Assembly (NCBI GenBank): GCA_964016885.1
Contig: OZ024743.1
Span: 146,010,001-146,074,000, forward strand
DNA from: Eledone cirrhosa
Lineage: Eukaryota
Length of the DNA: 64,000 nt
Reading direction: 5' to 3'
Positions 5,755-64,000 of the stretch are shown piece after piece. The notes under the pieces are model-generated. The model saw only the letters and a program-made list of their open reading frames with translations, was not told the origin of the DNA and ran no database searches. The position numbers and the translations under genes are program-made. Each line of letters starts with the position of its first letter. Within the stretch, counting starts at the first letter, position 1.

Positions 5755-8700
5755 CTGTTAACAAAAGGAAAATATGCCATAAAACCGAAATGAAATAACT
5801 TTAATTCATAAGCACTCAGTACTATATCAAATTTGTGAGTTACAATTGTTGCCAAACTGGTCATCTTAAATAATTAGCATCTAACCATTTGGCATTACAA
5901 TATTAAATTTACATATGTGTGTAAAGGAAAAAAAAAAATCTAGAAAAGAATATATTTGGAATTATCTGATGTCAAAATGAGAAATGATGTGTTAGACATT
6001 TTGCTTTTAATTCTAGACAAAAAACAGGATTTATTCTAATAATCTGATAAAATCCTCACCATTCAAACAATAATTCATGGAAAAGAATTATATTACATTT
6101 GCAGGCATAATGTTGAATATTTTCAAATTAAATTCAATGAATAAAAAGAGAAATTAATATTCTCTTTTAATACGATGACACACGACCATGACCTCTGGCG
6201 TCACGCAGTAATACAGAGTACCCGACCTCCCATGGGTACAAGCTGAAGCATATAGACAATATGCCCCCACACCCTCCCACAGCAAAAAAGCACCCAGCTC
6301 ACACTGTAAAGTGGACATGTAGGCGCCACGGAAAAAAAGCACCTAGTACTCAATGTAAATGAGGTTGGTGTTAGGAAGGGCATCCAGCTGTAGAAATCAA
6401 GCCAAAATCAGTTCCTGTATGAGCAAGGCATGGTCAGCCGACCAGACACTGCCCACAACAGGACAACCCGTGCTAGCATGGAAGAACGTACGTAATATGG
6501 TGATGATGATGAATACATCATTAAAAGTCGTAATAAAAATTAAATTCTGATAAGCTTTCCCATGTTGGACGGTTTGTTACATTTTGGACTAATATTTAAT
6601 CAGAACTACTGCCCTCATAGATGCACCAGAGAACCACATCTCACGTACACTATAGTTTTGGTATTGTTTTTTGACAGTAGGATGCCCTTCCTAATGCTAC
6701 ACTTTCATAATACGATTTGTAAGTTAAAGTTAGTATCCTATAGATTAAAACTTCATAAGATAGTCTGTGTATTCTCAACAAGTCAGAAAAAAATGCAAAT
6801 TTCTAATACCTGGTTTATATTTTATAAGGAGTTCATCAAGCTGTAACTTTAACTTCATGTTGCTGTAACTTAAAGTCTCTACCTTCTCTTCAGCCTGGCG
6901 TAGTTTTTTCATATAACTGACAACTTTATTTGTTTCTTGTATATACTGCATTTCTAGATTGTTCAGTTTTTCTTGCATAATCTCTAATTCCTTCCTGTAA
7001 GAGATAGTTATATATACATTTATATCATCATTTTGAGTTTCCCATGCTGTCATTAGTTGGACATAGTGGCCTTCATAGAGGACTCTTTCACACACATTCT
7101 ATTTTTAGCGTGGTTTATATAATTGGATGGCCTTCCTTAACACCAACCACTCAACAATGCATTGGGTGCATTTTATCATGGCACCAGTACTCAGGAGGTT
7201 ATGTCATCAACAAAACTGAAGAGTCCTCTTTACCTTGTGTGCTCTCCATTTGACCAATCACTTTACAGAGTATACTGAGTATTGTGGCACCAACATAGCT
7301 AAAAAGTTCTTTCCACTCTCTATCAGGGCAAAGTGTGCCTGAGAGAGCATTTTTAAGGAGAGTAAATAACTAAATACATAAACATAGGTTCTGCAACACC
7401 CATATTTTATGATCATAACACGTTAGTCCACATTTAACTAAATATATAAGAACAAGCAAGGAGCAAGCATTTGATTGTATTATGTTAACATATGCACTTG
7501 CATAAACATATCTATGTGATTATATATTGCAACAATTAGAATAAGGATTAGCAGTTTAGCAGGCCTGTCTATTGCATACTACTATTAAAGTTCACTTACT
7601 GCTTATTATTGTTTGCAGAGTCCAGAAAGTCAATTAAATCTTGATTTTCTTTGGTTCCAAATGCCTGTTGAACTTTCAACAATTTGTCATTCTGTTGTAA
7701 CTGAATAAAAACATAAAACATCAAAATGTTTTTCAATAACAATGTGACAAGACATTCATTCATATATGAAACATCCCATTAAATAATAGACATTTGCTTG
7801 AAAGCAAGAACTTGTGACTGAAAATCAATAAAAGCCATTTTCTAATATGTAATTTTATGATTTTTAAAGCTGAATTCCTGAAAATCCATTTTCCTTTATT
7901 ATTCAGCATTTAGATGGTAATTTTTAAATTGTTATTTCTTACATTTGCATGAATTACTGAAGCAGTGTGTACAGTAACTCAGAAGACTCTAGGGACACCA
8001 TCAATGATCCCTTCCCTAACAGTATTGCCAATAGATTGGCAATATATGAGAACAAAATATGAGAACAAAACTTTTGTTCAGTATAGAGCATCTTTTGAGT
8101 GCAGGCATGGCTGTATAATTAGGAAGTTTTTATTGCAGTCACATAGTTCCCAGTCTGGTTCTACAATTGGGTACTTTGGGCAAAACGTTTTCTAATATAA
8201 CCTCAGGTTGACTCAAGCCATATAACAGAAACTGTGCAGAAGTTCATTGGATGAACTGTACCTGATGAGTCATTGTTTTACCATTCTGTCACCAGTCTCT
8301 GCAATGATCATGAGAATTGCTGCTGCTTCTTCTAAACAAGCCATAAAAAAATTGAAAGCTCTTATTGCTCACGCTGCGAGCTCCATCTATCTATGATATC
8401 TACTTACAATTATGTGGATTGAGACATTTACAAACTGCCAATCTTTTGGCTATCGGCCTTTCAACTTTGTCAAGTTCAAACCTCAAAAGAGATGAACACC
8501 ATTAATACTAAGAGCTAGGTGATAAAGTAAGAGATGCAACAGAAACAAGAAGTATATTTTTATGCATTACAGTGGAGTTCATATCATCATCATCATCACC
8601 GTTTAACGTCCATCTTCCACGCTTGCATGGGTTTGGACGGGAATTTTCCCACTTGAGGCAAGATTGGTTGTCTTGCTCGTATAGGACTGTCTGGCCTTCC

Positions 8701-11700
8701 TAACACCAACCACATTTACAGTGTAGACTGGGAGGTTTTTACCGTGTTACCTACACGGCCACATTACAGCGTGGACTGTGTGTTTTTTTTTCATGACACC
8801 TACACGACCTCATTTATTTTGGACTGGATGTTGTGGTACCAACATAGCTTTACATCGAAAGGGGTGGTGTGGATGGTGGGATGGGGGTGTATTTTTGTTA
8901 GAGGTGCCTACTGACTTTAGGTTTTGCTTTGTACTTAGGAAAGGCGGGTCTTCTGTATTACTGTGTAGCGCCAAAGATCTCGGTCCAGTGACATTGTCTT
9001 GGAGAGGTGTAAGTGTGTGAGGTCGGATTTTATCAAGTCATCCCAGGTTTTTCTGGGTCTATATATAAATAAAACAAAATTTGTTTTTGCTCTTAAAATG
9101 GTGGATACCTAAATGTATTCATGAGTGAATAATAATAATATTATTAATATTCGGTTTGTTTGCAAGCAAACAGCCTAATAAACACCATGTGTGTTTTCTA
9201 GACAAACAACTTCATCCTCTTGTTCCAGCAGTAGCTGAGAGCAAACACTTCGAAAAAATTGTCGACTGTTTTCTCTCAGCTACCGCTGGAACAAAGGGAT
9301 GAAGTTGTTCATCTAGAAAACACACATGGTGTTTATGAGACTGTTTGCTTGTAAAAAACCGAATATTAGTAATATTATGATATTATTATTATTATTCACT
9401 CATGAATACATTATATATATATACACACAGGAAAAGGCACCACTGATGCCCTCTTCCTTGTGAGGCAGTTACAGGAAAAGTACCTAGCTAAAAGTAAGCC
9501 TCTCTACCTGGCATTCGTCGATCTGGAGAAAGCCTTTGACACAGTCCCCTGTGTTATAATCTGGTGGGCTCTTAGAAAACTAGGAGTAGATGAATGGCTT
9601 GTGAAAGCTGTACAAGCCATGTATAGGGGAGCAGTCAGCAAAGTTAGGATTAGTAATGACTATAGCGAGGAATTTAGCATACAGGTTGGTGTTCACCAGG
9701 GCTCTGTTCTTAGGCCTCTCCTGTTCATCATAGTTTTGCAGGCAATAACGGAGGAGTTTAAGACCGGATCATCATCATCATCATCGTTTAACGTCCATCT
9801 TCCACGCTTGCATGGGTTTGGACGTGTCCATGGGAACTCCTGTATGCAGATGACCTCGCATTTATAGTTGAATCTATGGTAGAACTAGAGAAGAAATTCC
9901 AAACATGGAAGCAGGGACTAGAAAGAAGAGGTCTCAAAGTCAACCTGACAAAGACTAAGGTCCGTGTAAGTAGACGAGAAAACAGAACCCAGATCCCCTC
10001 ATGGAAATGGCCTTGCTCAGTATGTAGGAAAGGTATAGGTAGGAACTCCATCCTCTGCCCCAAATGCAAACAATGGGTACACAAGAGATGTAGTGGGATC
10101 TCAGGAAGCTTAACTAAGAATGTAGGATTCACATGTAGCAGCTGCGCTGGGACAGCAAGCAGCATACAGCTTCAGGAAACAAGCACCACCAAACTCTGGG
10201 AGAGCTCTGTAGAAACAGTAGACAGCTTCTGCTACCTAGGTGACTGAATTAGCAGCGGAGCTGGGTGTTCGGAAAGTACAATAACTAGGGTAAGAACTGG
10301 ATGGAAGAAGTTCAGGGAGCTACTGCCACTGCTAGCTGCAAAAGGCTTTTCCCTCAAAATGAAGGGCAGACTGCATGATGTGTGTATACGAACAGCAATG
10401 TTACATGGTAGTGAGACCTGGGCGCTGTCTGTCGAAGACTTGCGTAAATTAGAAAGAAACGAAGTCTCCATGCTCCAATGGATGTGTAATAGTAATATAT
10501 GCGAACGGCAAAGCATAAACGAATTGAAAGAGAGAGACAGCATAAGAGGAATCAAATGCTGTGTGCAGGAGAGGAGGTTGCATTGGTATGGACATGTGAT
10601 GCGTATGAAGGATGATAGCTGCATAGAAGTCGATGGAAGCCGCGAAGTGGGGAGACCCAAGAAGACCTGGGATGAGGTGATAAAAGCCGACCGTAACCAA
10701 TTACACTTCACAAAGGCGGTGATACACAACCGTGACCTCTAGCGTCACGCAGTAATACAGAAGACCCCCCCCCCCCCCACACGGGTACAAGCTGAAGCAT
10801 ATAGAAAATATGCCCCCAACTCCTACCACTGCAAAGTGGTCGTGGAGGTGCCACAGAAAAAAAGCACCAAGCCCACACTATAAAGTGGACGTGTAGGCGC
10901 CATGGAAAAAAAGCACCCACCATTCACTGTAAATGAGGTTGGTGTTAGGAAGGGCATCCAGCTGTAGAAATCAAGCCAGAACCAGTTCCTGTATGAGCAA
11001 GACATGGTCAGCCGACTGGCTACTGCCCACAACAGGACAACCCATCTAACCCATGCTAGCGTGGAAGAACGGACGTAAAACGCACGTTTTTATGGACAGA
11101 TACAGGAAATCTTTAACCTTTAACTTACCTCATGTTTTTCCATACTCTTAATCTTTTCTTGCAACCGCTTAATCTCATGCTGTGACTGTGTTAATTTACT
11201 ATTCAGATACTCCAATTCAGTTTCATTACCTTTGCTGGAGTTCATCTGATATAATGACATAGTTTGCATCTGTTGATATGAGAATGAGAGAATCATTAAA
11301 ACTCATACTCTAAAAAGAATAAATAAAAATACAAAGTGTATAAAATATACACAATTTTTTTTATTTAAAGAAATAATTTCATATTAAATTACTTTTCATA
11401 AGATTTGGGTGACATTGAAAATAATTAGGATATCCAGTTAGGTAGTTAATGAATAATGGGAACATTTGAAATGTTTTACATACAAAGAAAAGAGTTTGTC
11501 CTGCACTGTCATAAAACAACAGGTAAACATTCTACTCTTGTTTAAATGTTAATTTAAATTTATAAAACATTAAAAAAATATTATTCTGTACTTTGAGTTT
11601 ATAATTTTGCTGCTTTTCCAAATTGTATTTTTCTTTCAAAGCTTGGTAATTCTCTTGTAAAGTTGCTAACATTTTCTCAGCTGAAACTCGACGATCTTCC

Positions 11701-20700: not shown

Positions 20701-22054
20701 TGGTTTCTACGGCTGGATGTCTTTCCTAACACCAATCATATCATGACACATTCATGACTACTTTACAGTGTGGGCTGGGAACTTTTTGTTGTGTCACCAA
20801 CATGACAACTTTACAGTGTGGACTGGGTGCTCATTATTGTGACACCAAGATGACTTGGGTACTTGGGTGGAGGAGGTAGATCTAGGAGTGGAGTGTTACA
20901 TGGGAGGAGTGATAGAAGGGAAGGTGACGCATACTAGATGTACACCTCAGACCCTGCATATGGGAAGGCGGGTCTTCTGTCTTACAGCATAGCGCCAGAG
21001 ATCACAATCTTGTGTTATTGTCTTTGAGAGGTGCAATTGTGTTAGGTCAGCTTTTATCACCTCATTCCAAGTCCTCCTACTCCATAGCTTCCATCAACTT
21101 TGAGCGTTCTGCACCTTTTTATACAGCTGTCATCCTTCATTACCATGCAACATTGCTGTTCGTAAAGATGCATCATACAATCTGCCCTTCATTTTGAAGG
21201 AAAAACCTTTTGTAGTTGGCAATGGTAGTAACTTCCTGAATTTTCTCCAGCCTATTCTCACTCTGGCTACTGCGCTTTCGGAACACCTCCCTCCACTACT
21301 AATTTGGTCACCCAAGTAACAGAAGCTATCTACTACTTCTACAGAGTCCTCTGGGCATTTGAAGGAGCTTGTATCCTGTGCGCTCTTGCTACTTACTGTA
21401 CCTGTGCATTGGCCACATGTAAAATTTACATTCTTTGCTAGCCTGTCAGAGATCCCACTACATCTCTTGTGTACCCATAGTTTGCATTTGGGACATAGGA
21501 TGGAATTTCTACCTACTCCTTTTCAGCACACACAGCAAGGGCATTTCACTGAGGGAATCTGGGCCTGGTTTTCCTTCCTGCATAGTAGAACTTTGGTCTT
21601 TGGCAAGTTAACTTTAATCCTCTTGGCGCTGTGGGTGACTGAATACATCGATAGAGTAATCTCTCCTTAATACATAATACAGTATCAAGGGAAGCAATTC
21701 ATAAAAAAATTCAGCCTCCAGAAGGTTAAGACCCTTTGAATCTAGGCCATGCTTCCAGGTTTCTCTAATTCTGCCATAGATTCAGCTATAAGGATTAGGT
21801 CATTTGCATACGTGAGTTCCCATGGGCAGCCAGTCTTAAATTCCTCTGTTATAGCCTGCAGGACGATAATAAACAGGAGAGTGTTAAGGACTGAGCCCTG
21901 ATGGACACCAACATGCATGCTAAATTCTTCGCTAGTCATTGTTAATTCTGACCTTGCTAACTGTTCATTTATACATGGCTTGTACTGCCTTCACAAGCCA
22001 CTTGTCTACTTCTAGTTTTCTAAGAACCCACCAGATAGTGGAACAAGACACACA

Positions 22055-40756: not shown

Positions 40757-43087
40757 ATGTACTTCGCAAGAAGGGAAGCAGAGGAAAGAAAGATCAAGCA
40801 TGTTCTACAACGCGAGGACCAGAAACGTGAGGTGTTCAGGATTGCTAGGCAATGTGTCAAGGAAAACCGTGATATTGTCGGGGAGAAGTGTGTACTTAAT
40901 GATGATGGTGTACTTGCCATCACTGACGCTGATAAGAAGGTAGCTTGGAAGTGTCACTACGAAAGGCTACTAAATGAGGAGAATAAATGGGAGAAAGACA
41001 GTCTCCCCCACATCGACCCAATAGAGGGACCAGCAGTGTTAGTCGAAGGTAGTATAATAAGTAAGGCAATCAAAGATATGAAGACGGGTAAGGCGGCTGG
41101 GCCTTCGGAAATAGTTGCTGAAATGCTGAAAGCTTCTGGAACGGTGGGACACACCATGGTCACCCGGATAGTAAACCAAGTCATACAGAATGCGGTTGTT
41201 CCGAAGGACTGGCGTAGCAGCATCATCATTAACTGCTACAAGGGTAAAGGAGATGCCCTAGATAGGAGTAACTATAGAGGCATTAAATTAATCGACCAGG
41301 TCATGAAGATCACAGAAAAAGTAATAGCGCAACTAATCAGAGAGAGAATTGATCTAGATGAAATGCAGTTCGGGTTTGTGTCAGGCAAAAGTACCACATA
41401 TGCTCTTTTCATTGTACGACAACTACAGGAGAAGTACCTAGCTAAAAGTAAACCCCTATACTTAGCTTTTGTCGACTTGGAGAAAGCCTTCGACAGAGTC
41501 CGCCATTCCAATATCTGGTGGGCTCTTAGAAAACTAGGTGTTGATGAATGGCTTGTGAGAGCTATACAAGCCATGTATAAAGAAACAGTCAGCAAGGTTA
41601 GAATTAACAACGAATATAGTGAAGAGTTTAGCGTAAAAGTTGGTGTTCATCAGGGCTCCGTTCTTAGCCCCCTACTATTTATTATTGCCCTTCAGGCTAT
41701 AACAGTGGAGTTCAAGACCGGCTGCCCATGGGAACTCCTATACGTAGATGATCTAACGCTCATAGCTGAATCAATGGCTGAACTAGAGAAGAAATTCCAA
41801 ACATAGAAGCACGGCCTAGAATCAAAAGGCCTTAAAATTAACCTGTCTAAGACTAAAGTTCTAGTTTGTAGGAAGGAAAATAGGGCGCCGGTCCCATCCG
41901 GGAAATGGCCATGCTCAGTGTGTAGGAAAGGAGTAGGTAGAAACTCCATTTTATGTCCCAAATGCAAAGTATGGGTACATAAAAGATGTAGTGGGATCAC
42001 AGGTAAGCTAACTAAGAACATAGATTTTACATGTGGCCGGTGCTCTGGTGCAATAAGTAGCAGCAAGTGCCCACAGAATACTAGCTCTTTCAATTGCACA
42101 GAGGGTTCTATAGAAATAGTGGACAGCTTCCGTTACCTGGGTGACAAAATCAGCAGTGGTGGAGGGTGCTCTGAAAGTACTAGAGTCAGAACTGGATGGA
42201 AAAAGTTCAGAGAGCTTATACCACTATTAGCCGCTAAAGGGTTCTCTCTAAAAATGAAAGGCAGGCTGTATGATGCCTGCATACGAACAGCAATGTTGCA
42301 TGGCAGTGAGACCTGGGCATTGTGTGCAGAGGATATACGCAGACTAGAGAGGAACGAAGCTTGCATGCTCCGCTGGATGTGTAGTAGTAATATACGTGAA
42401 CGGCAAAGCATTAACGAACTAAGGGAAAAATTAGAAATAAGAGGGATCAGATGTTGTTTACTCGAGAGAAGGCTACGTTGGTATGGTCACGTAATGCGCA
42501 TGAAAGACGACAGCTGTATAAAAAAGTGCAGGGCAATAAAAATAGACGGTAACCACGGAGTAGGCAGACCCAGAAAAACCTGGGACCACTTGATAAATTC
42601 CGACCTCACACACTTACACCTCTCCAAGACAATGTCACTGGACCGAGACCTTTGGCGGTACACAGTAATAGAGAAAACCCGCCTTACCTAAATACAAAGT
42701 AAAACCTACTACAGTCAGTAGGCACCTCTAACAAAATACACCCCCGTCCCACTACCCCCACCCCATCCACAACGCCCCTTTCAATGTAAAGTTATGTTGG
42801 TACCACAACACCCAGGCCGAAACAAATGAGGTCGTGTAGGTGTCATGACAAAAAAACACACAGTCCACGCTGTAATGTGGCCGTGTAGGTAACATGGTAA
42901 AAACCTCCCAGTTCCACACTGTAAATGTGGTTGGTGTTAGGAAGGGCATCCAGCCGCAGAAAACCCGCCAGACAGTCCTATGCGAGCAAGACAACCACTC
43001 TTGCCTCAAGTGGGAAAACTCCCGTCCAAACCCATGCAAGCGTGGAATATGGACGTTAAACGATGATGATGATGATGATGATGATGA
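40757..43087 (+). mobile_element. RTE LINE, longest copy; 645-codon frame with one stop; 3' UTR and (GAT)n tail
   Basis: ORFs 40757-41806 and 41918-42691 are in the same frame (TAG at 41804 in place of Trp); complete RT with YVDD. Confidence 0.95.
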
Positions 43088-49116: not shown

Positions 49117-50398
49117 CATCATCATCATCATCATCATCACCGTTTTACGTCCGTTCTTCCATGCAAGCATGGGTTAGACGGGTTGTCCTGTTGTGGGCAG
49201 TGTCTGGTCGGCTGACCATGCCTTGCTCATACGGGAACTGATTCTGGCTTGATTTCTACAGCTGGATGCCCTTCCTAACACCAACAGTGAGTTGGTGTTA
49301 GGAAGTGCTGGGTGCTTTTTTTCCATGGCGCCTACACGTCCACTTTACAGTGTGGGCTGGGTGCTTTTTTGCTGTGGCACCTCCACGTCCAATTTGCAGT
49401 GGGAGGGTGTGGGGGCATATTGTCTATATGCTTCAGCTTCAGCTTGTACCCATGGGGGGGTTGGGTCTTCTGTATTACTGCGTGACGCCAGGGGTCACGG
49501 TTGTGTATCATCGCCTTTGAGAGGTGTAATTGGGTAAGGTTGGCTTTTATCATCTCATCCCAGGTCTTCTTGGGTCTCCCCACTCCGCAGTTTCCATCGA
49601 CTTCTAGTGCTCTGCACCTTTTTATGCAGCTGTCATCCTTCATACGCATCACATGTTCATACCAACACAACCACCTCTCCTGCATACAGCATTTGATTCT
49701 TCTTATGCTCAGTCTCTTTCTCAATTCATTTATGCTTTGCTGTTCATGTATATTACTATTACACATCTATCGGAGCATGCAGGCTTCGTTTCTTTCTAAT
49801 CTAGGTCTCACTACCATGTAACATTGTTTATCGTATACACGCATCATACAGTCTGCCTTTCATTTTGAGGGGAAAGCCTTTTGCAGCTAGCAGTGGCAGT
49901 AGCTCCCTGAACTTCTTCCATCCCGTTCTTACCCTAGTTATTGTACTTTCCGAACACCCACCTCTGCTGCTACATCGGTCACCTAGGTAGCAGAAGCTGT
50001 CTACTGTTTCTACAGAGCCCTCCCAGAATTTGGTGGTGTTTGTTTGCTGTGGCTGTTTGCTGCTTGCTGTCCCAGCACAGCTGCTACATGTGAAGCCTAC
50101 ATTCTTAGTTAAGCTTCCTGAGATCCCACTACATCTCTTGTGTACCCATTGTTTGCATTTGGGTCAGAGAATGAAGTTCCTACCTACACCTTTTCTACAT
50201 ACTGAGCAAGGCCATTTCCCTGAGGGGATCTGGGTTCTGTTTTCTCGTCTAATTACAAGGACCTTAGTCTTTATCAGGTTGACTTTGAGACCCTTTCTTT
50301 CTAGTCCTCTGCTTCCATGTTTGGAATTTCTTCTCTAGTTCTACCATAGATTCAGCTATAAGTGCGAGGTCATCTGCATACAGGAGTTCCCATGGGCA
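49117..50398 (-). mobile_element. RTE LINE, 5'-truncated
   Basis: [11 protein letters not shown] through the 3' UTR and (CAT)n; close relative of 9431-11082. Confidence 0.92.
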
Positions 50399-50471
50399 TA
50401 TATATATATATATATATCGTTTCTGAATTTGTTTAGCAAGATTCTTTATCTGAAATCGTGTGTTGAAACCG

Positions 50472-55994: not shown

Positions 55995-58038
55995 TATAGC
56001 GAGATTACTGGTAGTGTGAATGTAACAAAACGAGACAATGTTTGTGTATATAATATTTAATTAACGGTAGATAGAATACTTGACATGTCAAAGATAGATG
56101 TTAGAATGAAACAAAGTTAGTAGTTACCGTTTTGATTGCCAGGCAAACGCGGCTGGCAGAGGGCGCCTGGCCTTAGCCAGGCGCCTGTTGGCCAAATTAA
56201 TGGCAGAGCCAAATGAGAAGACTCTTGACCTGGTGCCGAAAAGGCAAAGAGAGGGAGGAAGCCCAAAGTTGTTAGTTTTATAGGGCTCTGACCGGAAGTT
56301 GCAGAAAGGGTTCCACTTCCCGTCTAGATCCCAATCAAAACAAGGGAGACAACCGCTACATAACCTCCCGCCAGAATTTTAGTGTATAAAAATCGAAATG
56401 AAAATATGTAGCAAGTTGGCGAGAATTTTGTAACAGGCATGAAAATTACAAAAGAATGTTTGGAAAAATCAATGATAGATATCAAGGTAGCCAACCGCTC
56501 TTGGCCAGAGAACGACTGGACATCCATCTATCCATCACCCAAAGATACAATGTAATAAAGTAAAAGTAATAGAAGAGCTCAAAGTTCAAAATATAGTTCA
56601 CAGGTGTGCAATCACATGACAGCAGGAAAGAAAGTGTGTTCCAGAGAATGAATGCAGGTGGTTTCTGTTCTGTGGTATATCGTGAAATTTCCAACCTCCG
56701 AATGGATTTTCTCACAGGAAGAGTGCTGCAAAAATAAATTCTCTGGCTTTGGTGAAGCTGTTATGATGTATTGCTGTTGCTGTTATATTGCTGTTGCTGC
56801 TGCTGTTGTCTCGCTGAGTGAGCGTATTCGGTGTTTAAATTCACAGTAAAAAAAATTTTTTTTTTAGAAAAAAAAATGAGTTGCGCAAAGTGCTAGAAAT
56901 AGCAGCCGAAGTTGAGAATGCGTTGACCTGGAAGGGTCAAGAGGCCAGCGACCAGAGAAATAAGCATTCTTAATAAATGCGCGGTTATCAACGGTAAATT
57001 TACATTGTAAATTTATAAACCGGCAAATAGAAGAATATAGCTTAAGGCTGAAGAATCCTTGGGGGAGAAATGCTATCTCTGGCGTGCGGCTATGTCTGTG
57101 AGTAAGAGACATCTCAGTGAATCGAGAATTTATGCTGCCTACACGTGCCAATACAAGGTTGAAAAAAAATATTTCTAACGCGCGAGAAAATGATAGTGCA
57201 ATTTTGAAAGTGACAATGATGAAAAAGAAAGGCTTCAATCAGCATAATTATAGGTGTGAACTTTTTGAAAAAAAAAAAAAAAAAAAAACTTGAACGATGA
57301 AGAAAACGAAGAACAAAAGGCAATGGTTCATCGAAAATAAATGTTCCTGTTGAAATGTTTTTTAAAGAATATCAAATTTCTTTTTTTTTTTTGTGTGTGT
57401 TTTGAAAGAGTTCGTTGTAAGAAACGAGAAACATATATATATATATTGGTGAAATGCGACAGTTAATTGATGCGTGAGAGAAAAAGTATGTCTGTGCGAA
57501 TTCCACATGTGCTTGTGTGCGTGTCCTTGAGTATTTTCATAGTTTGTCGCTAAATTTGCCGTGTATTCGTAATGTTACTCACAAAACCAGATGTGCTATT
57601 TTTTTCTTTTTTTGGGGGTGACCACTTATAGCGATGAACGGCTGCGTGTTCGTATCACGTCGGGGTCACCAATATAGCGAGATTACTGGTAGTGTGAATG
57701 TAACAAAACGAGACAATGTTTGTGTATATAATATTTAATTAACGGTAGATAGAATACTTGACATGTCAAAGATAGATGTTAGAATGAAACAAAGTTAGTA
57801 GTTACCGTTTTGATTGCCAGGCAAACGCGGCTGGCAGAGGGCGCCTGGCCTTAGCCAGGCGCCTGTTGGCCAAATTAATGGCAGAGCCAAATGAGAAGAC
57901 TCTTGACCTGGTGCCGAAAAGGCAAAGAGAGGGAGGAAGCCCAAAGTTGTTAGTTTTATAGGGCTCTGACCGGAAGTTGCAGAAAGGGTTCCACTTCCCG
58001 TCTAGATCCCAATCAAAACAAGGGAGACAACCGCTACA
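55995..58038 (-). mobile_element. Young non-autonomous LTR retrotransposon (366-bp LTRs, tRNA-Trp PBS, TSD AAGT)
   Basis: LTRs 55995-56360 and 57673-58038 look identical by eye; AAGT at 55991-55994 and 58039-58042; PBS TGGTGACCCCGACGTGAT; PPT-like GGCGGGAGG; no gag or pol. Confidence 0.95.
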
Positions 58039-58763
58039 AAGTAATAAATCCTTACAATGGGTGGTGTAGTTGACTGAAACATTTGAGCACCAAAGGTAAA
58101 ACTAGTACAATATTTGGATTCATCCTTCTGTTGTTCAAATTTAAATTCTGCTAGGATCTACTTTGCATTTTATTCTATTGGTGTCAATATGATAGGCACC
58201 AGTAATACACTGGAGTTTATTTAAACTCCACATCCATCTTTAGCAATCCCACTGACTCCCACTCCTACCTCAATTTATTCTCCTCCCATCCTACTTGCAA
58301 TAAATCAGCTATCATAATTCTTTTATCTTCACAACATTTGTAGCCAAGGCTCTCACACAGAGTTACTTGCCAATGAAACTTGCAGCCTAATTCCTTTACA
58401 CCTTTCAACACTCAGCCTGGAACATCTATTTCTATCAGTTCCCATTGTAACACATACACTTTGGATATTGTTAAATGAAAAGCAGATAACATTGAAAGTT
58501 CAGTGAGAACAGTTATTTGTGATGTGAATAAAAGCACAGAAATGTGTTTTATATTTTCAATATTCCAGAGATGATATCTTTTGGAAATAACAATGACATA
58601 GTTTTAGGAGAAGTTGGTAGAGAATTTAACAGTTTAGTTTTGGGAATGAAGTGATGGTTGGAATGTTATCTGGATAATTTGCAGTTATTTCTTTTTTCAT
58701 TTTGTTGAAGAAAATGAGGATTTGGTGTTAGGATAAGTTAAGAAAAGAGCTGATTGAAGTAAC

Positions 58764-61700
58764 TGTGGTGAGAAAGCTATTCCACTTACTACGAGTCTGC
58801 TGGTTCACTCCAAGCCGGGCATCAATCTCCGTCGTTATAATCAAGTCGCCAAGCTGCAGCTTAATCCGGTACGTCCGTCTTGCTCCAAGTCGCCGTGAGA
58901 GATGCCTTACGGACGCCGCCTTGGAAACACATGGACGCAGCCTACAGACGCTGCCTCGGAAACGCATAGCCGCCCCAGCCTACGGACGCCGCCTCAAGCA
59001 CATCTCGCCTCACTCCTCCTCCGCCTCCGGTCAAGCGTCCACATCTGACGTCACCTTCTCCACACAGCCCCCCCCCCCCCTCCCTGATCTCAAGGATCAA
59101 TCTCCCCCTCACTCTGCTGAATGTGATAATCTGCCGTCCACCCAGGCAGTCGGCGATCCCGTCGCGATCTCCGTAATGTTGGGGTGGCACTTTTGATTTC
59201 CTCTTCCTCTTCCTCGGAGTCTGTCAACACAATGATTCTACGGACATCCAGGACGTGACGTGGTACTCCGTCCACGGACACATTATTCTGGGAATTCATG
59301 GCCGTAACCGTTCCCTTTCCCCATTGAGATGTGCTGCGTGCATCTGGGGGCTTAATTCAGACTTCCTCGCCCACCTGTACGAATGCGCTCTCTCTCTCTA
59401 CTGGCTGTTGTGGTACCGTGCATGGATGCCGCCACTCGTACTTGTATATCGCTCTGTGTGGCACCGATTCCTCAGCCTGTCCCACCCGAGGGGACATGTT
59501 GTACCTAAACACTGCCTCCATTGGTGAGATGTGCCCCCGTTCCGCCATTGCTTTGATTGTGCGGTGGTGTCGCTCCATGATCCCATTTCCGCTCGGCCTG
59601 TATGATGCTCTGAAGAAGCAGTCCACCTTCCATCCATCAAGCATTTCCCTCAGCGCCTCAGACCGGAACGCTGCACTGTTGTCCATCAGCAGTTTATCCA
59701 CAGGGCCCTGCTCCAAAAGTATCTCTCTCAACGTCCGTGTGATTTCCTCCGCAGTTCCCATCTTCATTTCCCTCCATATCGCCATCCATCCCGGTCCACA
59801 ATCAACCATCGAGAGGTATGTTCCCTGTTGGTAGTACGTCACATCCACTGCCAATCGTTTCCAGTCGCGATCCACCAGGAGACTTCCCGACTCGTGCACA
59901 CTCGGGGCTGGATCGATAGACTGGCATCGGACGCAGCCTCTGACCACACTCTTGACACTGTCTCTGCGAACGTCGGAATCGATTTTCTTGGCTAGGAACA
60001 GGGTTCTATCCCCTCCCATGTGGTGCATGGCATGCAACCCTTTAAGGTCCAACTCGCTCAGCCGACACACAGCGGCTATCCCCTCTTCTGCATCCTCCGA
60101 CGCTTCCATCCAGGCTTTCTTCACCCTGGTTAAGATGTCTGCTCTATTTTTCTCTGAGGGCACGAAGACTACACTCAACTTCAGGCCGAACTCGGTGGCC
60201 AGCTCTCCTAGAGGTACCAGGCGGCGCTTTATCAGCATTTCTGCCGCCCCTCTCGTTCGCACTCTCTTCTCACTGGTAAGCACTGACCTCACCCATCCGA
60301 GTACAGTCGCCGAGTCGGTGCGAATCTCGATGGTGCGCAGTCCCCACCTCAAGGCGAGGTTCACCCCTTTCAACACAGTGTCCAGCTCGGCCAAATTGAT
60401 GTGGTTACAATCATCTTTCTTCCTGAGCCAGGCTGCATCCTTGACCTCGACACCTCCTGTCTCCAGCATGACACCTAACGCTATGCTGCTGGCATCACAC
60501 CATACAGTTCCACTCTGCGATTTGGGGACATACCAGCGTCCTCGCACCGGGTCATCAGCCTTCACCCTCCCCATGATCTGCATCATGGCCATCGTCCTCT
60601 CTCCCACCTTGTAATTCCAAGTAACCCCGTCCGCTCGTCTCTTGACATAGCTGCATGCCGTCCGGAGCCACCCAGCAATTGGGTAGTGACTCACCAATTT
60701 TCCACACACCGAGAAGAGTTCCCATCTATTCATGATTGGGCCCAGTTCCGGGACTTCATTTCCCCTCCGAAATACCAACATGCCCGTCTTGTCTCTTCAG
60801 AGCCGAAGTCCCAGTGCGGCTCCTCCCTCCAATGCCTCCGATGGTTTTGCAGTCAATCCGTACCCTTCTAAATGGGTCGTGACCTCCACCACCAACACTA
60901 TAGTCTCGTCCACTAGGATGTTGACGATGTTGGAATTGGTGGCCCTCTTCGTCTTGTCAGTCTTTCCCAGAATGGTCTTGAGGACCGCCGCCATGATCTT
61001 CGGTGCAGAGTTCAGCCCGAAGCCGAGCCTGGTCAGGCAATATGTCTGACCCTTATACTTGACAAGCTGATATTGCCACAGCTTCTTCTCCACGTGTAGC
61101 TGTAGACATGCCGACTTTAAGTCGACGATTGTGGAAGCCCCCGTCATACGTCTCCACTCGCGCAGAGTTTCCCCGCAGACATCCGTGACCTCACCACCCA
61201 TGTGACATGACACATGCTCATTCAGCTCCCGAAAATCCAACACTGGTCTCACCTTGTTCTTCGTGAGTTGCACCACAGCCATTAACGGCAGTATCCCACA
61301 CTTCACCTCCTCCTTCCAGGGAAGCAGTATGCACCTCCTCGATCCATTTCTCTACCTCTCACTCAAACTCTCTCCTAGTGTCTCTTTTCAATGTGTGCTG
61401 ATAGCAGCCCACTTTTTTCTTCAGTGTTGGTGGTTTTCCCTTCCAGTACCACTCAACAATCCATCGCTGCCCGTCGAACATGGCCTTGAAGTCCTTATCC
61501 TGTACGGTATGAGCGGCATATTTTTCCTCGTGGGCCTTCTCGCTCTCCTGATGCGTACTCACAGGTCATGCTGGTGCAGCACCACCAAATGTTACTCCGA
61601 CATCGTTCACTGACGCCTCCTAATCGGCCAATCATGTCCATGCCCATAACCACGTCAATTCCATCTACTACGCAGTCGACCACAATGGCTGAAAGCCTAA

Positions 61701-63013
61701 TTCTTTTTCCCCTTACCACCATCTCCACCTCGCTGCGACCTCTACCTTAAATTTTCCTGCCGTCAACTGCCCTTATGATGCTCTTCCCTCTCCACTTTTC
61801 CACCACCCCCGTGTCCACGAGGGCTCGTAATGGCTTTCCCTTCACCAGGAATTTCACCACAGGCAGTGCCTCTACACTGGAGGGGTAGCTACCGGCGCAA
61901 TAACTCCCCTTGGACCGTTTCCCTGGTCGCAATTGGTAGCGATGTGGCCCGGTAGCAAATTATGTCTGGTGTCGACTCCTTACAATCTCTCACCATGTGC
62001 GCACCCTGGCACCTATAACAACGACCCCTAAACGTGCATGGGCGACTGTTCACCGTGTTTGTTGCCCTTTCGGCATTTTGCTGTCGGCTGCCCTGGGCCC
62101 CCATCGCCGCTATTGCCACAACACTCTTCTTAGCATCATCCGCTATGATGCGGGCTTGCTCTACCAATGTACACATCTCCATTTCCTTGTAGCCAGGTAT
62201 TTGTTGCAGTCTCACTGCGATGTCATCCCTAAAACCGTTTATAAATGCCAGCCGCACTGCACACTTGCACTCGACCTGAAACTCCACCAGCATGGCCAAT
62301 CTCCTTTTCTCCGCAGCAAAAATATCCACACGCTGACCTTCCCACCTTATTCTTGCCATCTTGGCAAACGCGGTACATGGACCTTCCGCAAACGCCTTTA
62401 TCATACGCTGTTCAATTTTTTGCATGTCCCTCTGGCTGATTTCGTCCATCTCGAGGTACAATGCTAGCGCATCCCCCTCGAGCTATAGCGCCATGAGACC
62501 GGCCACATCGTCTATCTTTTGTAGCTTGGCGACCACCCCAACCTTTCGCATCCAAGCGATAACATCTCCTTCACCGGTAAAAGCTTTAAGTACTTCACCG
62601 CTCAACCGTAAACTCGTTGCCATCTCTTTAGTCCTGTGGTAAGCTCGCGGTAAGTGATAAAACAAGATTCTTTCTTTTTTTTTTTTTTTTTTTTTTCAAT
62701 TGTACGTCTTCATATGCCGAAATAGCTTGTGGTGAGAAAGCTATTCCACTTACCGTGAGTCTGCTTGTTCACTCCAAGCCGGGCATCAATCTCCGTCGTT
62801 ATAATCAAGTCGCCAAGCTGCAGCTTAATCCGGTACGTCCGTCTTGCTCCAAGTCGCTGTGAGAGATACCTTATGGACGCAACCTACAGATGCCACCTCG
62901 GAAACGCATAGCCCCAGCCTACGGACGCCGCCTCAAACACATCTCGCCTCACTCCTCCTTCGCCTCCGGTCAAGCATCCCACATCTGACGTCACCTCCCC
63001 ACACAGCCCCACA
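58764..63013 (-). mobile_element. Ty3/Gypsy LTR retrotransposon, full length, decayed
   Basis: LTRs 58764 to about 59073 and 62728-63013; TSD GTAAC; gag with CYRCQGAHMVRDC, PR ALVDTG, RT RPVLDFRELN and LGFGLNSAP, RH WCDASS, IN with HHCC, LAVDVT, LMDN and GNGIMER; G-rich PPT. Confidence 0.95.
59130..62623 (-). pseudogene. gag-pol pseudogene (PR-RT-RH-IN order)
   Basis: Collinear ORF fragments with stops and frameshifts; the RT catalytic YxDD has degenerated to NIVN. Confidence 0.9.
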
Positions 63014-64000
63014 GTAACATTGAAGAAATGTTTATTTTCTGTATATGAAAGTAAATCAAGAGGCAAAGGTATTTCTAACAAATTCACATGAGATGTTGAC
63101 TCTTTTCTATACATATGTGATTGTATCTCTTATACTCAACCATAATCGTTGGACTATTTCTCAAAAGATAGTAGTTTTGAAGCTCTGACAGACATTGAAA
63201 TAACTTGTTGGAGCAACTTTTTCTTTTTGATTCTTAATCCTTTAGCTACTACAATGATATATATGTCGTTTATCAAATAATTGCTACACTGACACATACA
63301 TTGCCTTTATAGATGAAGGTTAAAATTTGTTTAATTTTGTTGTATCAACTGGAGATTGCTAGAGCCATTGGCTCTTTACATTTTGAGTTTAAATCCTGCT
63401 GATGTCAACTTTGCCTTCCATAATTCTGGAGTGAATAAAACAAAGTGCTAATCAAAATTCGTGACCTTGTGCTGATATTAGAAATGATTGTATGATAACT
63501 AGTAATCACTGCCATAACTAGAAGTGTTTTTATCAACTTAGACAAAGTTACAAAAGCAATTTTGTCTATGTTGAGGACTCAAATGGTTTTTTCCTCAAAA
63601 TGTGATATCGCAGATGAGGTAAGCCAAAGGTTGGTGGATTCTGATGATTCTTTAAGTTACTCAAAACCTGAAGATCATTTAAATGAATCCAATTTTGATG
63701 CTCTGACTTTAGACTGTGGAAGTGATAATAATTGTTTCTACTTTTGGCACAAGACCAGCAATTATTCCAGTGTATTACTGGTACTTTATTGAAAGTGATA
63801 ATAATAATAATAAATAGGTAGTGGGTAATGGATATTGGCTATGGTCATTACTCCAGGGAGTGACAACCCTGTCTGTCACAAGTCCTAGGCTCAGCTGGCT
63901 CCAGCTGACAGCACCTGGTATGGATCCCTCACTAGAGTTTTGGAATAACAAATCTCTGTGATCAAGAAACACCCGGTTAATATCTGAATCGGTTCAGTCC

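Follow-up and report, generated by a model that had tools for sequence, protein, structure and literature searches.

Our work has identified a lineage of LTR retrotransposons in which the twelve bases that directly follow the 5' LTR are complementary to the 5' end of a tRNA, i. e. to its nucleotides 1-12, and in which different elements match different tRNAs. The site lies flush with the LTR, its conservation spans exactly twelve bases, and it is shared by a copy in Eledone cirrhosa and its distant relatives. From this geometry we infer, with considerable confidence, that the lineage primes the synthesis of minus-strand DNA from tRNA nucleotides 1-12, which would be set free by a cut or by trimming between nucleotides 12 and 13.

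The element in the window and its site for the tRNA-Phe 5' end

The window, a stretch of 64,000 nucleotides of the E. cirrhosa genome, contains a 4.25-kb LTR element on the minus strand (58764-63013). Direct LTRs with TG...CA ends, a target site duplication (TSD), a polypurine tract and gag-pol mark it as an LTR retrotransposon: The 5' LTR (62728-63013) has 286 nt, the 3' LTR (about 58764-59074) shares 94-96% identity with it in the aligned blocks, and the TSD GTTAC, read from the sequence, flanks the element on its 5' side (63014-63018) and on its 3' side (58759-58763). The polypurine tract (59075-59086) ends in a G run that overruns the first bases of the 3' LTR. The copy is decayed: gag with its CCHC-like knuckle (61889-62623) is interrupted by a stop near 62483, and the pol remnant (59150-61880), which has the order PR-RT-(DUF7047 thumb region)-RNase H-IN, carries several stops and frameshifts and has lost the YXDD motif of the RT. 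The closest named proteins come from Octopus and Argonauta. The candidate site for binding of the primer (PBS) at 62716-62727, which reads GCCGAAATAGCT on the plus strand, is the complement of nucleotides 1-12 of tRNA-Phe(GAA). Since both LTRs end at the same CA and the TSD follows the 3' LTR, the 12-mer abuts the 5' LTR with zero spacer; the LTR ends and the TSD thus confirm the earlier note, which had placed the 12-mer directly behind the 5' LTR in the absence of a TGG site.

The window also holds a second LTR element on the minus strand (55995-58038), which has a length of 2.0 kb, no long ORFs, identical LTRs of 366 nt and the 4-bp TSD ACTT. Its canonical TGG site at 57671 resembles the tRNA-Trp PBS quoted in a passage of PMC3587641, and this suggests ordinary priming for this neighbour. 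Several dispersed copies of a LINE-like repeat as well as of a SINE-like family with ATC-repeat ends are present at 8500-11100, 21000-22050, 41400-42700 and 49400-50400.

The assignment of the 12-mer to tRNA-Phe(GAA) was borne out with the host's own genes. The earlier note had seen a different 5' end of the host tRNA-Phe as a possible objection, and in fact the tRNA-Phe(GAA) genes of E. cirrhosa start with exactly the twelve bases complementary to the site. A 25-nt pattern of the tRNA-Phe 5' end has 219 matches in the 3.0-Gb genome, compared to none for the reversed control, and the Phe(gaa) call made by ARAGORN begins at the first G of the pattern match. Likewise, the combination of CA, 0-2 nt and the 12-mer is found 753 times (with some places counted twice), compared to four times for the control. 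Among 111 distinct tRNA calls of host, bacterial and viral origin, with a partial host set, the Phe(gaa) 5' end is the only one that pairs with the 12-mer; in the same set, no tRNA pairs with it through an internal stretch or through its 3' end, and no match of the copia type, i. e. with an internal stretch that ends in the anticodon stem, was present. A chance match was rejected based on the genome counts relative to the control, the conservation in the lineage and the sharp limit at twelve bases.

The host genome contains large tandem arrays of tRNA genes on C4 (from about 117.37 Mb, and at 79.56-79.62 and 128.67-128.74 Mb) and on C2 (102.03-102.14 Mb), with Phe and Asn genes in 1.26-kb units, Lys-CUU genes and elongator Met genes. 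Moreover, host genes for the elongator tRNA-Met and for tRNA-Lys(UUU) (L158-L163 and L165-L167; on C2, C3 and C14) are interrupted in the anticodon loop by introns with a length of about 19-23 nt.

The site is retained in the other copies of this genome. A DNA search yielded 17 5' junctions, 14 with the exact site, two with one change and one in which it is disrupted. When 40 copies were picked by their protein alone, 33 had retained the site, either exactly (27 copies) or with one change (6 copies), and the remaining seven had no readable junction. The host subfamilies vary in U5 and in the bases 3' of the site; the site itself is constant. A search of the E. cirrhosa genome for Met- or Lys-type sites gave a single match, to a combination that corresponds to no tRNA. 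As read by eye, at least 14 host copies have a TSD of 5 bp, and two have an apparent TSD of 4 bp.

Conservation of the site and its different tRNA partners

As the earlier note had proposed, relatives were collected by Pol homology and the bases behind their LTRs were compared with tRNAs. The Pol alignment retrieved 83 loci with 38-61% identity, 76 from metagenomes and seven from prokaryote assemblies, the latter evidently eukaryotic contamination; viral contigs searched with the same alignment contained no relative. Among the named relatives are sequences from Oratosquilla, Petrolisthes, Aplysia, Nymphon, Macrosteles, Trichuris and Watersipora; named relatives occur in molluscs, crustaceans, a sea spider, an insect, a nematode and a bryozoan. 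The catalytic residues of RT, RNase H and IN are invariant in all 30 intact Pol sequences, and the homologous gag ORFs encode 227-272 amino acids.

Some of these loci show peculiarities of their own. L117, L118 and L120 are located on one 25-kb contig of a bacterial metagenome-assembled genome (MAG), in an 8.16-kb tandem unit that holds two tRNA-Ser(UGA) genes as well as an element of the DUF7047 lineage with two LTR-site junctions; these loci, and likewise L115, L116, L119 and L121, are evidently eukaryotic DNA in a bacterial bin. In L087, the primer site is separated from gag by an insert that derives from a tRNA and contains a T run (1845-1945), and L086 (about 1070-1160) has an atypical site, of which 11 bases are directly repeated inside the LTR. 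In a Nymphon gene model (P0231), a GCN2 kinase is fused to the Pol of the lineage, probably a prediction artefact over an insertion.

The junctions were first found by the motif and then checked against the position of gag, which was located by protein and blind to the site. The N-terminus of gag was found in 57 of the 83 loci. Two of these loci start inside gag, and the site is present in 54 of the other 55; the sole exception, L065, has upstream sequence but no recognisable site. In most relatives, the site lies 0-40 nt upstream of the gag ATG. Duplicate removal, together with the addition of L109 and L121 (found by the motif only) and of the window copy, resulted in 49 distinct junctions. 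Four relatives have both LTR ends in full (L054, L070, L078 and L097), and in these the last base of the repeat is the one that directly precedes the site. The mean pairwise identity of the 49 junctions is 0.83 in the 12-mer, but only 0.29 upstream and 0.29 downstream of it, and the column counts show that conservation stops at base 12. Within the site, positions 1-5 and 10-12 are almost invariant, and the variation is concentrated at the bases opposite tRNA nucleotides 4-7. A canonical TGG site, which would pair with a tRNA 3' end and lie 0-3 nt from the LTR, is absent from all 49 junctions. Thus, neither of the two observations that would have spoken against the earlier note, a TGG site in other copies or a lack of conservation of the 12-mer, was made. 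As judged from these alignments, the site is real and lineage-wide.

The partner is not always tRNA-Phe. The earlier note was right to name this tRNA for the window copy, but across the lineage the 5' ends of elongator tRNA-Met and of tRNA-Lys are matched as well. The host-type Phe start accounts for 15 of the 49 sites. Eight sites match the 5' end of tRNA-Phe of Plasmodium falciparum, for which a 5' tRF primer listed in the PMC6332904 supplement gave the sequence. Two sites (L073 and L082), from loci that share no DNA similarity, match nucleotides 1-12 of the host-type elongator tRNA-Met and differ from the Phe type by five changes. One site matches tRNA-Lys(CUU), with four changes from Phe, and two correspond to the 5' terminus of human tRNA-Lys given in a passage of PMC3710361; the 5' start of tRNA-Lys(UUU) of E. 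cirrhosa differs from the latter sites. The Met, Lys and Plasmodium-type matches are to tRNAs of other organisms, and the switching was observed between loci rather than within one host. The only match of L097 is to a tRNA-Phe from a viral contig, which is weak evidence because many bacterial and phage tRNAs begin in this way. What speaks against tRNA 5' ends as partners is that for the remaining 20 sites, no eukaryotic tRNA was matched: Five of them are degenerate, and the others are tRNA-like and form groups of 11, 2, 1 and 1. The search for a eukaryotic tRNA behind these sites returned only bacterial tRNAs in the three MAGs with element contigs, bacterial and phage tRNAs of many types plus four Phe genes in the viral scans, and no match in the Toxoplasma supplement of PMC10269570.

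The length of the site is reflected in its edges. At the position adjoining the LTR, 47 of the 49 sites have A; the other two, which have C, are precisely the Met-type sites. Since this base tracks tRNA nucleotide 12 (U12 vs. G12), nucleotide 12 is paired, whereas C13 cannot pair because the last base of the LTR is A in all 49 junctions. Pairing past nucleotide 12 or into the pre-tRNA leader was rejected because the 49 junctions have no constant base behind the site (27 A, 13 C, 6 T and 3 G) and the host leaders differ. In a quick RNase H-IN tree, which covers 41 of the 49 junctions as eight with short protein cover were left out, the site types are scattered, and differing types occur inside well-supported clades. 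The scatter fits a template outside of the element.

A putative priming mechanism and its alternatives

We suggest that the site hybridises with nucleotides 8-12 and with the 5' strand of the acceptor stem, either of the whole tRNA, of a 5' half or of a 5' tRF. A 3'-OH would have to be generated at nucleotide 12, because the tRNA cannot pair from nucleotide 13 onward, with the last A of the LTR facing C13. The RT of Tf1 cuts its own RNA with its RNase H to release a primer of 11 nt, and the RNase H of RTs has a 5'-end-directed mode. We therefore slightly favour the element's own RT-RNase H, which would measure from the tRNA 5' end, over a host nuclease. In a structure model, the RNase H is predicted to follow directly after the thumb, with no connection domain (pLDDT 74). 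The RT would then extend from nucleotide 12 into U5, and plus-strand synthesis would run off at tRNA nucleotide 1. Such a run-off would set the far edge of the site and would allow it to be recopied from whichever host tRNA is used. Recopying of the site is not universal among LTR elements: According to a passage of PMC7472051, Ty1 and Ty3 inherit their PBS.

The energetics are compatible with whole tRNAs as well as with fragments. The 12-bp duplex of site and tRNA has a computed energy of -20.7 kcal/mol. With tertiary contacts and modifications ignored, the net energy of invading the folded tRNA is -6.4 kcal/mol as compared to -5.1 kcal/mol for a canonical 12-nt 3' site, and if the host U5 hairpin has to be opened, this net gain is lowered, under the same simplification, to about -1 kcal/mol. 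Thus, both kinds of primer are possible, and fragments would be used more easily. Every partner tRNA that could be identified has A9. As m1G9 blocks base pairing, this choice of tRNAs would avoid such a block.

The U5 hairpin could offer a primer from within the element. In the window, a U5 segment (62739-62748, minus strand) can fold back onto the site's first 9-10 bases, resulting in a hairpin of 10 pairs including G-U with -5.3 kcal/mol in a 50-nt stretch, and of 33 host copies with a readable junction, 32 maintain it by means of purine exchanges. The inverted copy of the site that the earlier note had pointed out (AGCTATTCC on the plus strand, 62739-62747) is therefore real, but it is limited to the octopus-type subfamilies: The pairing segment is absent in the distant relatives, and the host subfamily L217 has the site but no hairpin. 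Tf1-type self-priming, in which the transcript of the element would prime itself with U5 or with a different part of the LTR, could draw on this well-kept hairpin. Yet the longest pairing between site and LTR averages 6.98 as compared to 7.19 in shuffled sequences (48 junctions), and self-priming was therefore rejected at the level of the lineage. The earlier note had named a match of the 12-mer to the start of the element's own transcript as an argument against tRNA priming; such self-complementarity of the LTR is not conserved in the lineage. Moreover, the hairpin misses the last three conserved bases of the site, priming from it would leave just about 11 nt to copy, and the matches to tRNA-Met and tRNA-Lys would find no explanation. 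We thus regard self-priming as very improbable. The hairpin may rather gate the access of the primer in E. cirrhosa.

The remaining alternatives accept the site but give it another role. The most serious one, although in our view still improbable, is that binding of the tRNA 5' end by the site serves solely for anchoring or regulation, i. e. for tRNA recruitment or as a target of a 5' tRF or of a tRNase Z guide, with the 3'-OH coming from elsewhere. Auxiliary tRNA contacts do exist in Ty1 and Ty3, guides for tRNase ZL made of 5' half-tRNAs occur in abstracts among the matches of our literature search, and the base after the site, with A in 27 of 49 junctions, looks discriminator-like. However, the LTR end offers no alternative primer site (TGG in 0 of 49), and an anchor accounts poorly for a site that is flush with the integration-defined end of the LTR and whose first base tracks tRNA nucleotide 12. 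There is little to recommend the idea that the tRNA stays uncut and that its nucleotide 12 provides a 2'-OH for priming through a retron-like branch: The same geometry would fit, invasion of the folded tRNA is energetically possible, and no nuclease would be required, but to our knowledge branch priming occurs only with retron RTs, and the modelled fold of the Pol resembles retroviral and LTR-type RTs. Equally hard to defend is a DNA or RNA motif bound by a protein, be it at the integrase end, in packaging or in the translation of gag, with the likeness to tRNA arising by chance. The closeness of the site to the gag ATG and its nearly fixed positions 1-5 and 10-12 would be in line with such a motif; the exact matches to three other tRNA 5' ends, at 2-5 changes each, and the lack of any other PBS are not. 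Priming from tRNA nucleotides 1-12 is the reading that we prefer.

Classification of the lineage and comparison with known priming systems

The elements share the TG...CA ends of the LTRs, the TSD of mostly 5 bp, the polypurine tract, the CCHC gag, the order PR-RT-RH-IN and an integrase with H2C2 and rve domains with Ty3/Gypsy elements (Metaviridae). To this extent the label "Gypsy" of the earlier note fits, but the RT and RNase H profiles make a canonical Ty3/Gypsy element doubtful: None of six intact Pols matches PF17917 or PF17919 at E 0.05, PF00078 reaches only 26-28 bits where it is matched and thus stays below the cut-off, and all six contain DUF7047, which marks the lineage. Conversely, the lineage profile gives 7-11 bits for the RT in 4 of 18 canonical Gypsy loci of the host, and 9-43 bits for the integrases. 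The element is thus probably not canonical Ty3/Gypsy, as set apart by profile scores rather than by named reference RTs; the BEL and copia copies of the host are too decayed to serve as outgroups. Searches of the PDB and for similar folds returned retroviral, foamy, caulimoviral and Ty3 proteins at 10-19% identity with no clear nearest relative, the best match in the Atlas is the DUF7047 cluster itself, and a search for longer proteins gave one fused gene model among 5917 candidates, which is weak evidence. The lineage may be a long branch inside Gypsy, or one of the unnamed or MolGy clades of PMC6238403, whose passages on these clades do not mention a PBS. The Troyka elements (Kuafuorterviruses), as presented in parts of PMC12440569 and PMC11673190, are likewise a divergent LTR lineage of aquatic invertebrates with the order PR-RT-RH-IN that was once placed under Gypsy. 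Yet they have CG...CG ends, a 3-bp TSD and (I/V/L)ADD in the RT, in contrast to TG...CA, 5 bp and (Y/F)XDD here, and membership was rejected since all three features differ; the parts of PMC12440569 that we covered do not mention a PBS.

According to a passage of PMC6317226, LTR elements use three types of primers: the whole tRNA, a half tRNA cut in the anticodon stem, which is limited to copia lineages, and a self-primer. Half-tRNA priming is assigned there to the Ty1/copia lineages Osser, Bryco, Gymco-II and Bianca. In Skipper, an unexplained polypyrimidine site is described (PMC5006619, in part). Among the matches listed in our literature search, none describes an LTR-element site complementary to tRNA nucleotides 1-12, and the passages of PMC3587641 and PMC12859917 contain nothing on such a site; Repbase Reports, GyDB, subscription journals, Figshare data and preprint supplements lay outside the scope of this search, terms with a prime sign could not be matched, and a prior description there is possible. 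If our reading holds, the lineage would add a fourth type to the three primers listed, and it is possibly tRNA-fragment priming of a new kind in an unnamed lineage. The full scenario can be put forward only tentatively, and we doubt that every part of it will hold: a deep, unnamed lineage outside of canonical Ty3/Gypsy, present from animals to probably protists, whose RT-RNase H would cut host tRNAs in trans 12 nt from their 5' end, prime from the fragment and recopy the site, which would thus adapt to the tRNAs of the host. Such a lineage, of which a single animal genome contains hundreds of copies, would provide a defined substrate for an RT nuclease that acts on a tRNA in trans, and 5' tRFs rather than 3' tRFs would be predicted to prime or to block its elements. 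PBS finders that rely on tRNA 3' ends only, such as the search with 3' 12-mers described in PMC13524379, would score all these elements as lacking a site.

The putative mechanism shares features with each of the three known systems. With canonical priming from the tRNA 3' end, as used by retroviruses, most Ty3/Gypsy elements, BEL and copia, it has in common the host tRNA as the source, the site next to the LTR and the switching between tRNA types; in contrast, the site described here faces the opposite strand of the acceptor stem and contains no complement of CCA (0 of 49). Half-tRNA priming is used by copia and Ty5. It resembles our system in the use of a 5' fragment of a host tRNA, the 3' end of which would, as the geometry suggests, be made by cleavage, and in the lack of a TGG site. 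However, the copia-type primer results from a cut in the anticodon stem and pairs through an internal stretch of the tRNA, whereas here nucleotides 1-12 would act as a 12-nt fragment, the tRNAs are those for Phe, Lys and elongator Met, and the Pol has the order PR-RT-RH-IN. The closest parallel in geometry is self-priming by Tf1, sushi and Tj1 (passages in PMC6317226 and, for Tj1/Tf1, PMC4600332): In both cases, the site is complementary to the very first 11-12 nt of an RNA at its 5' end, and a cut would be needed to provide the 3'-OH. Here, the partner is a host tRNA in trans rather than a segment of the element's own transcript, the LTR contains no complement of the site in the lineage, and the Pol gave no match to a chromodomain. 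If confirmed, priming from tRNA nucleotides 1-12 would thus join Tf1-style cleavage to tRNA priming.
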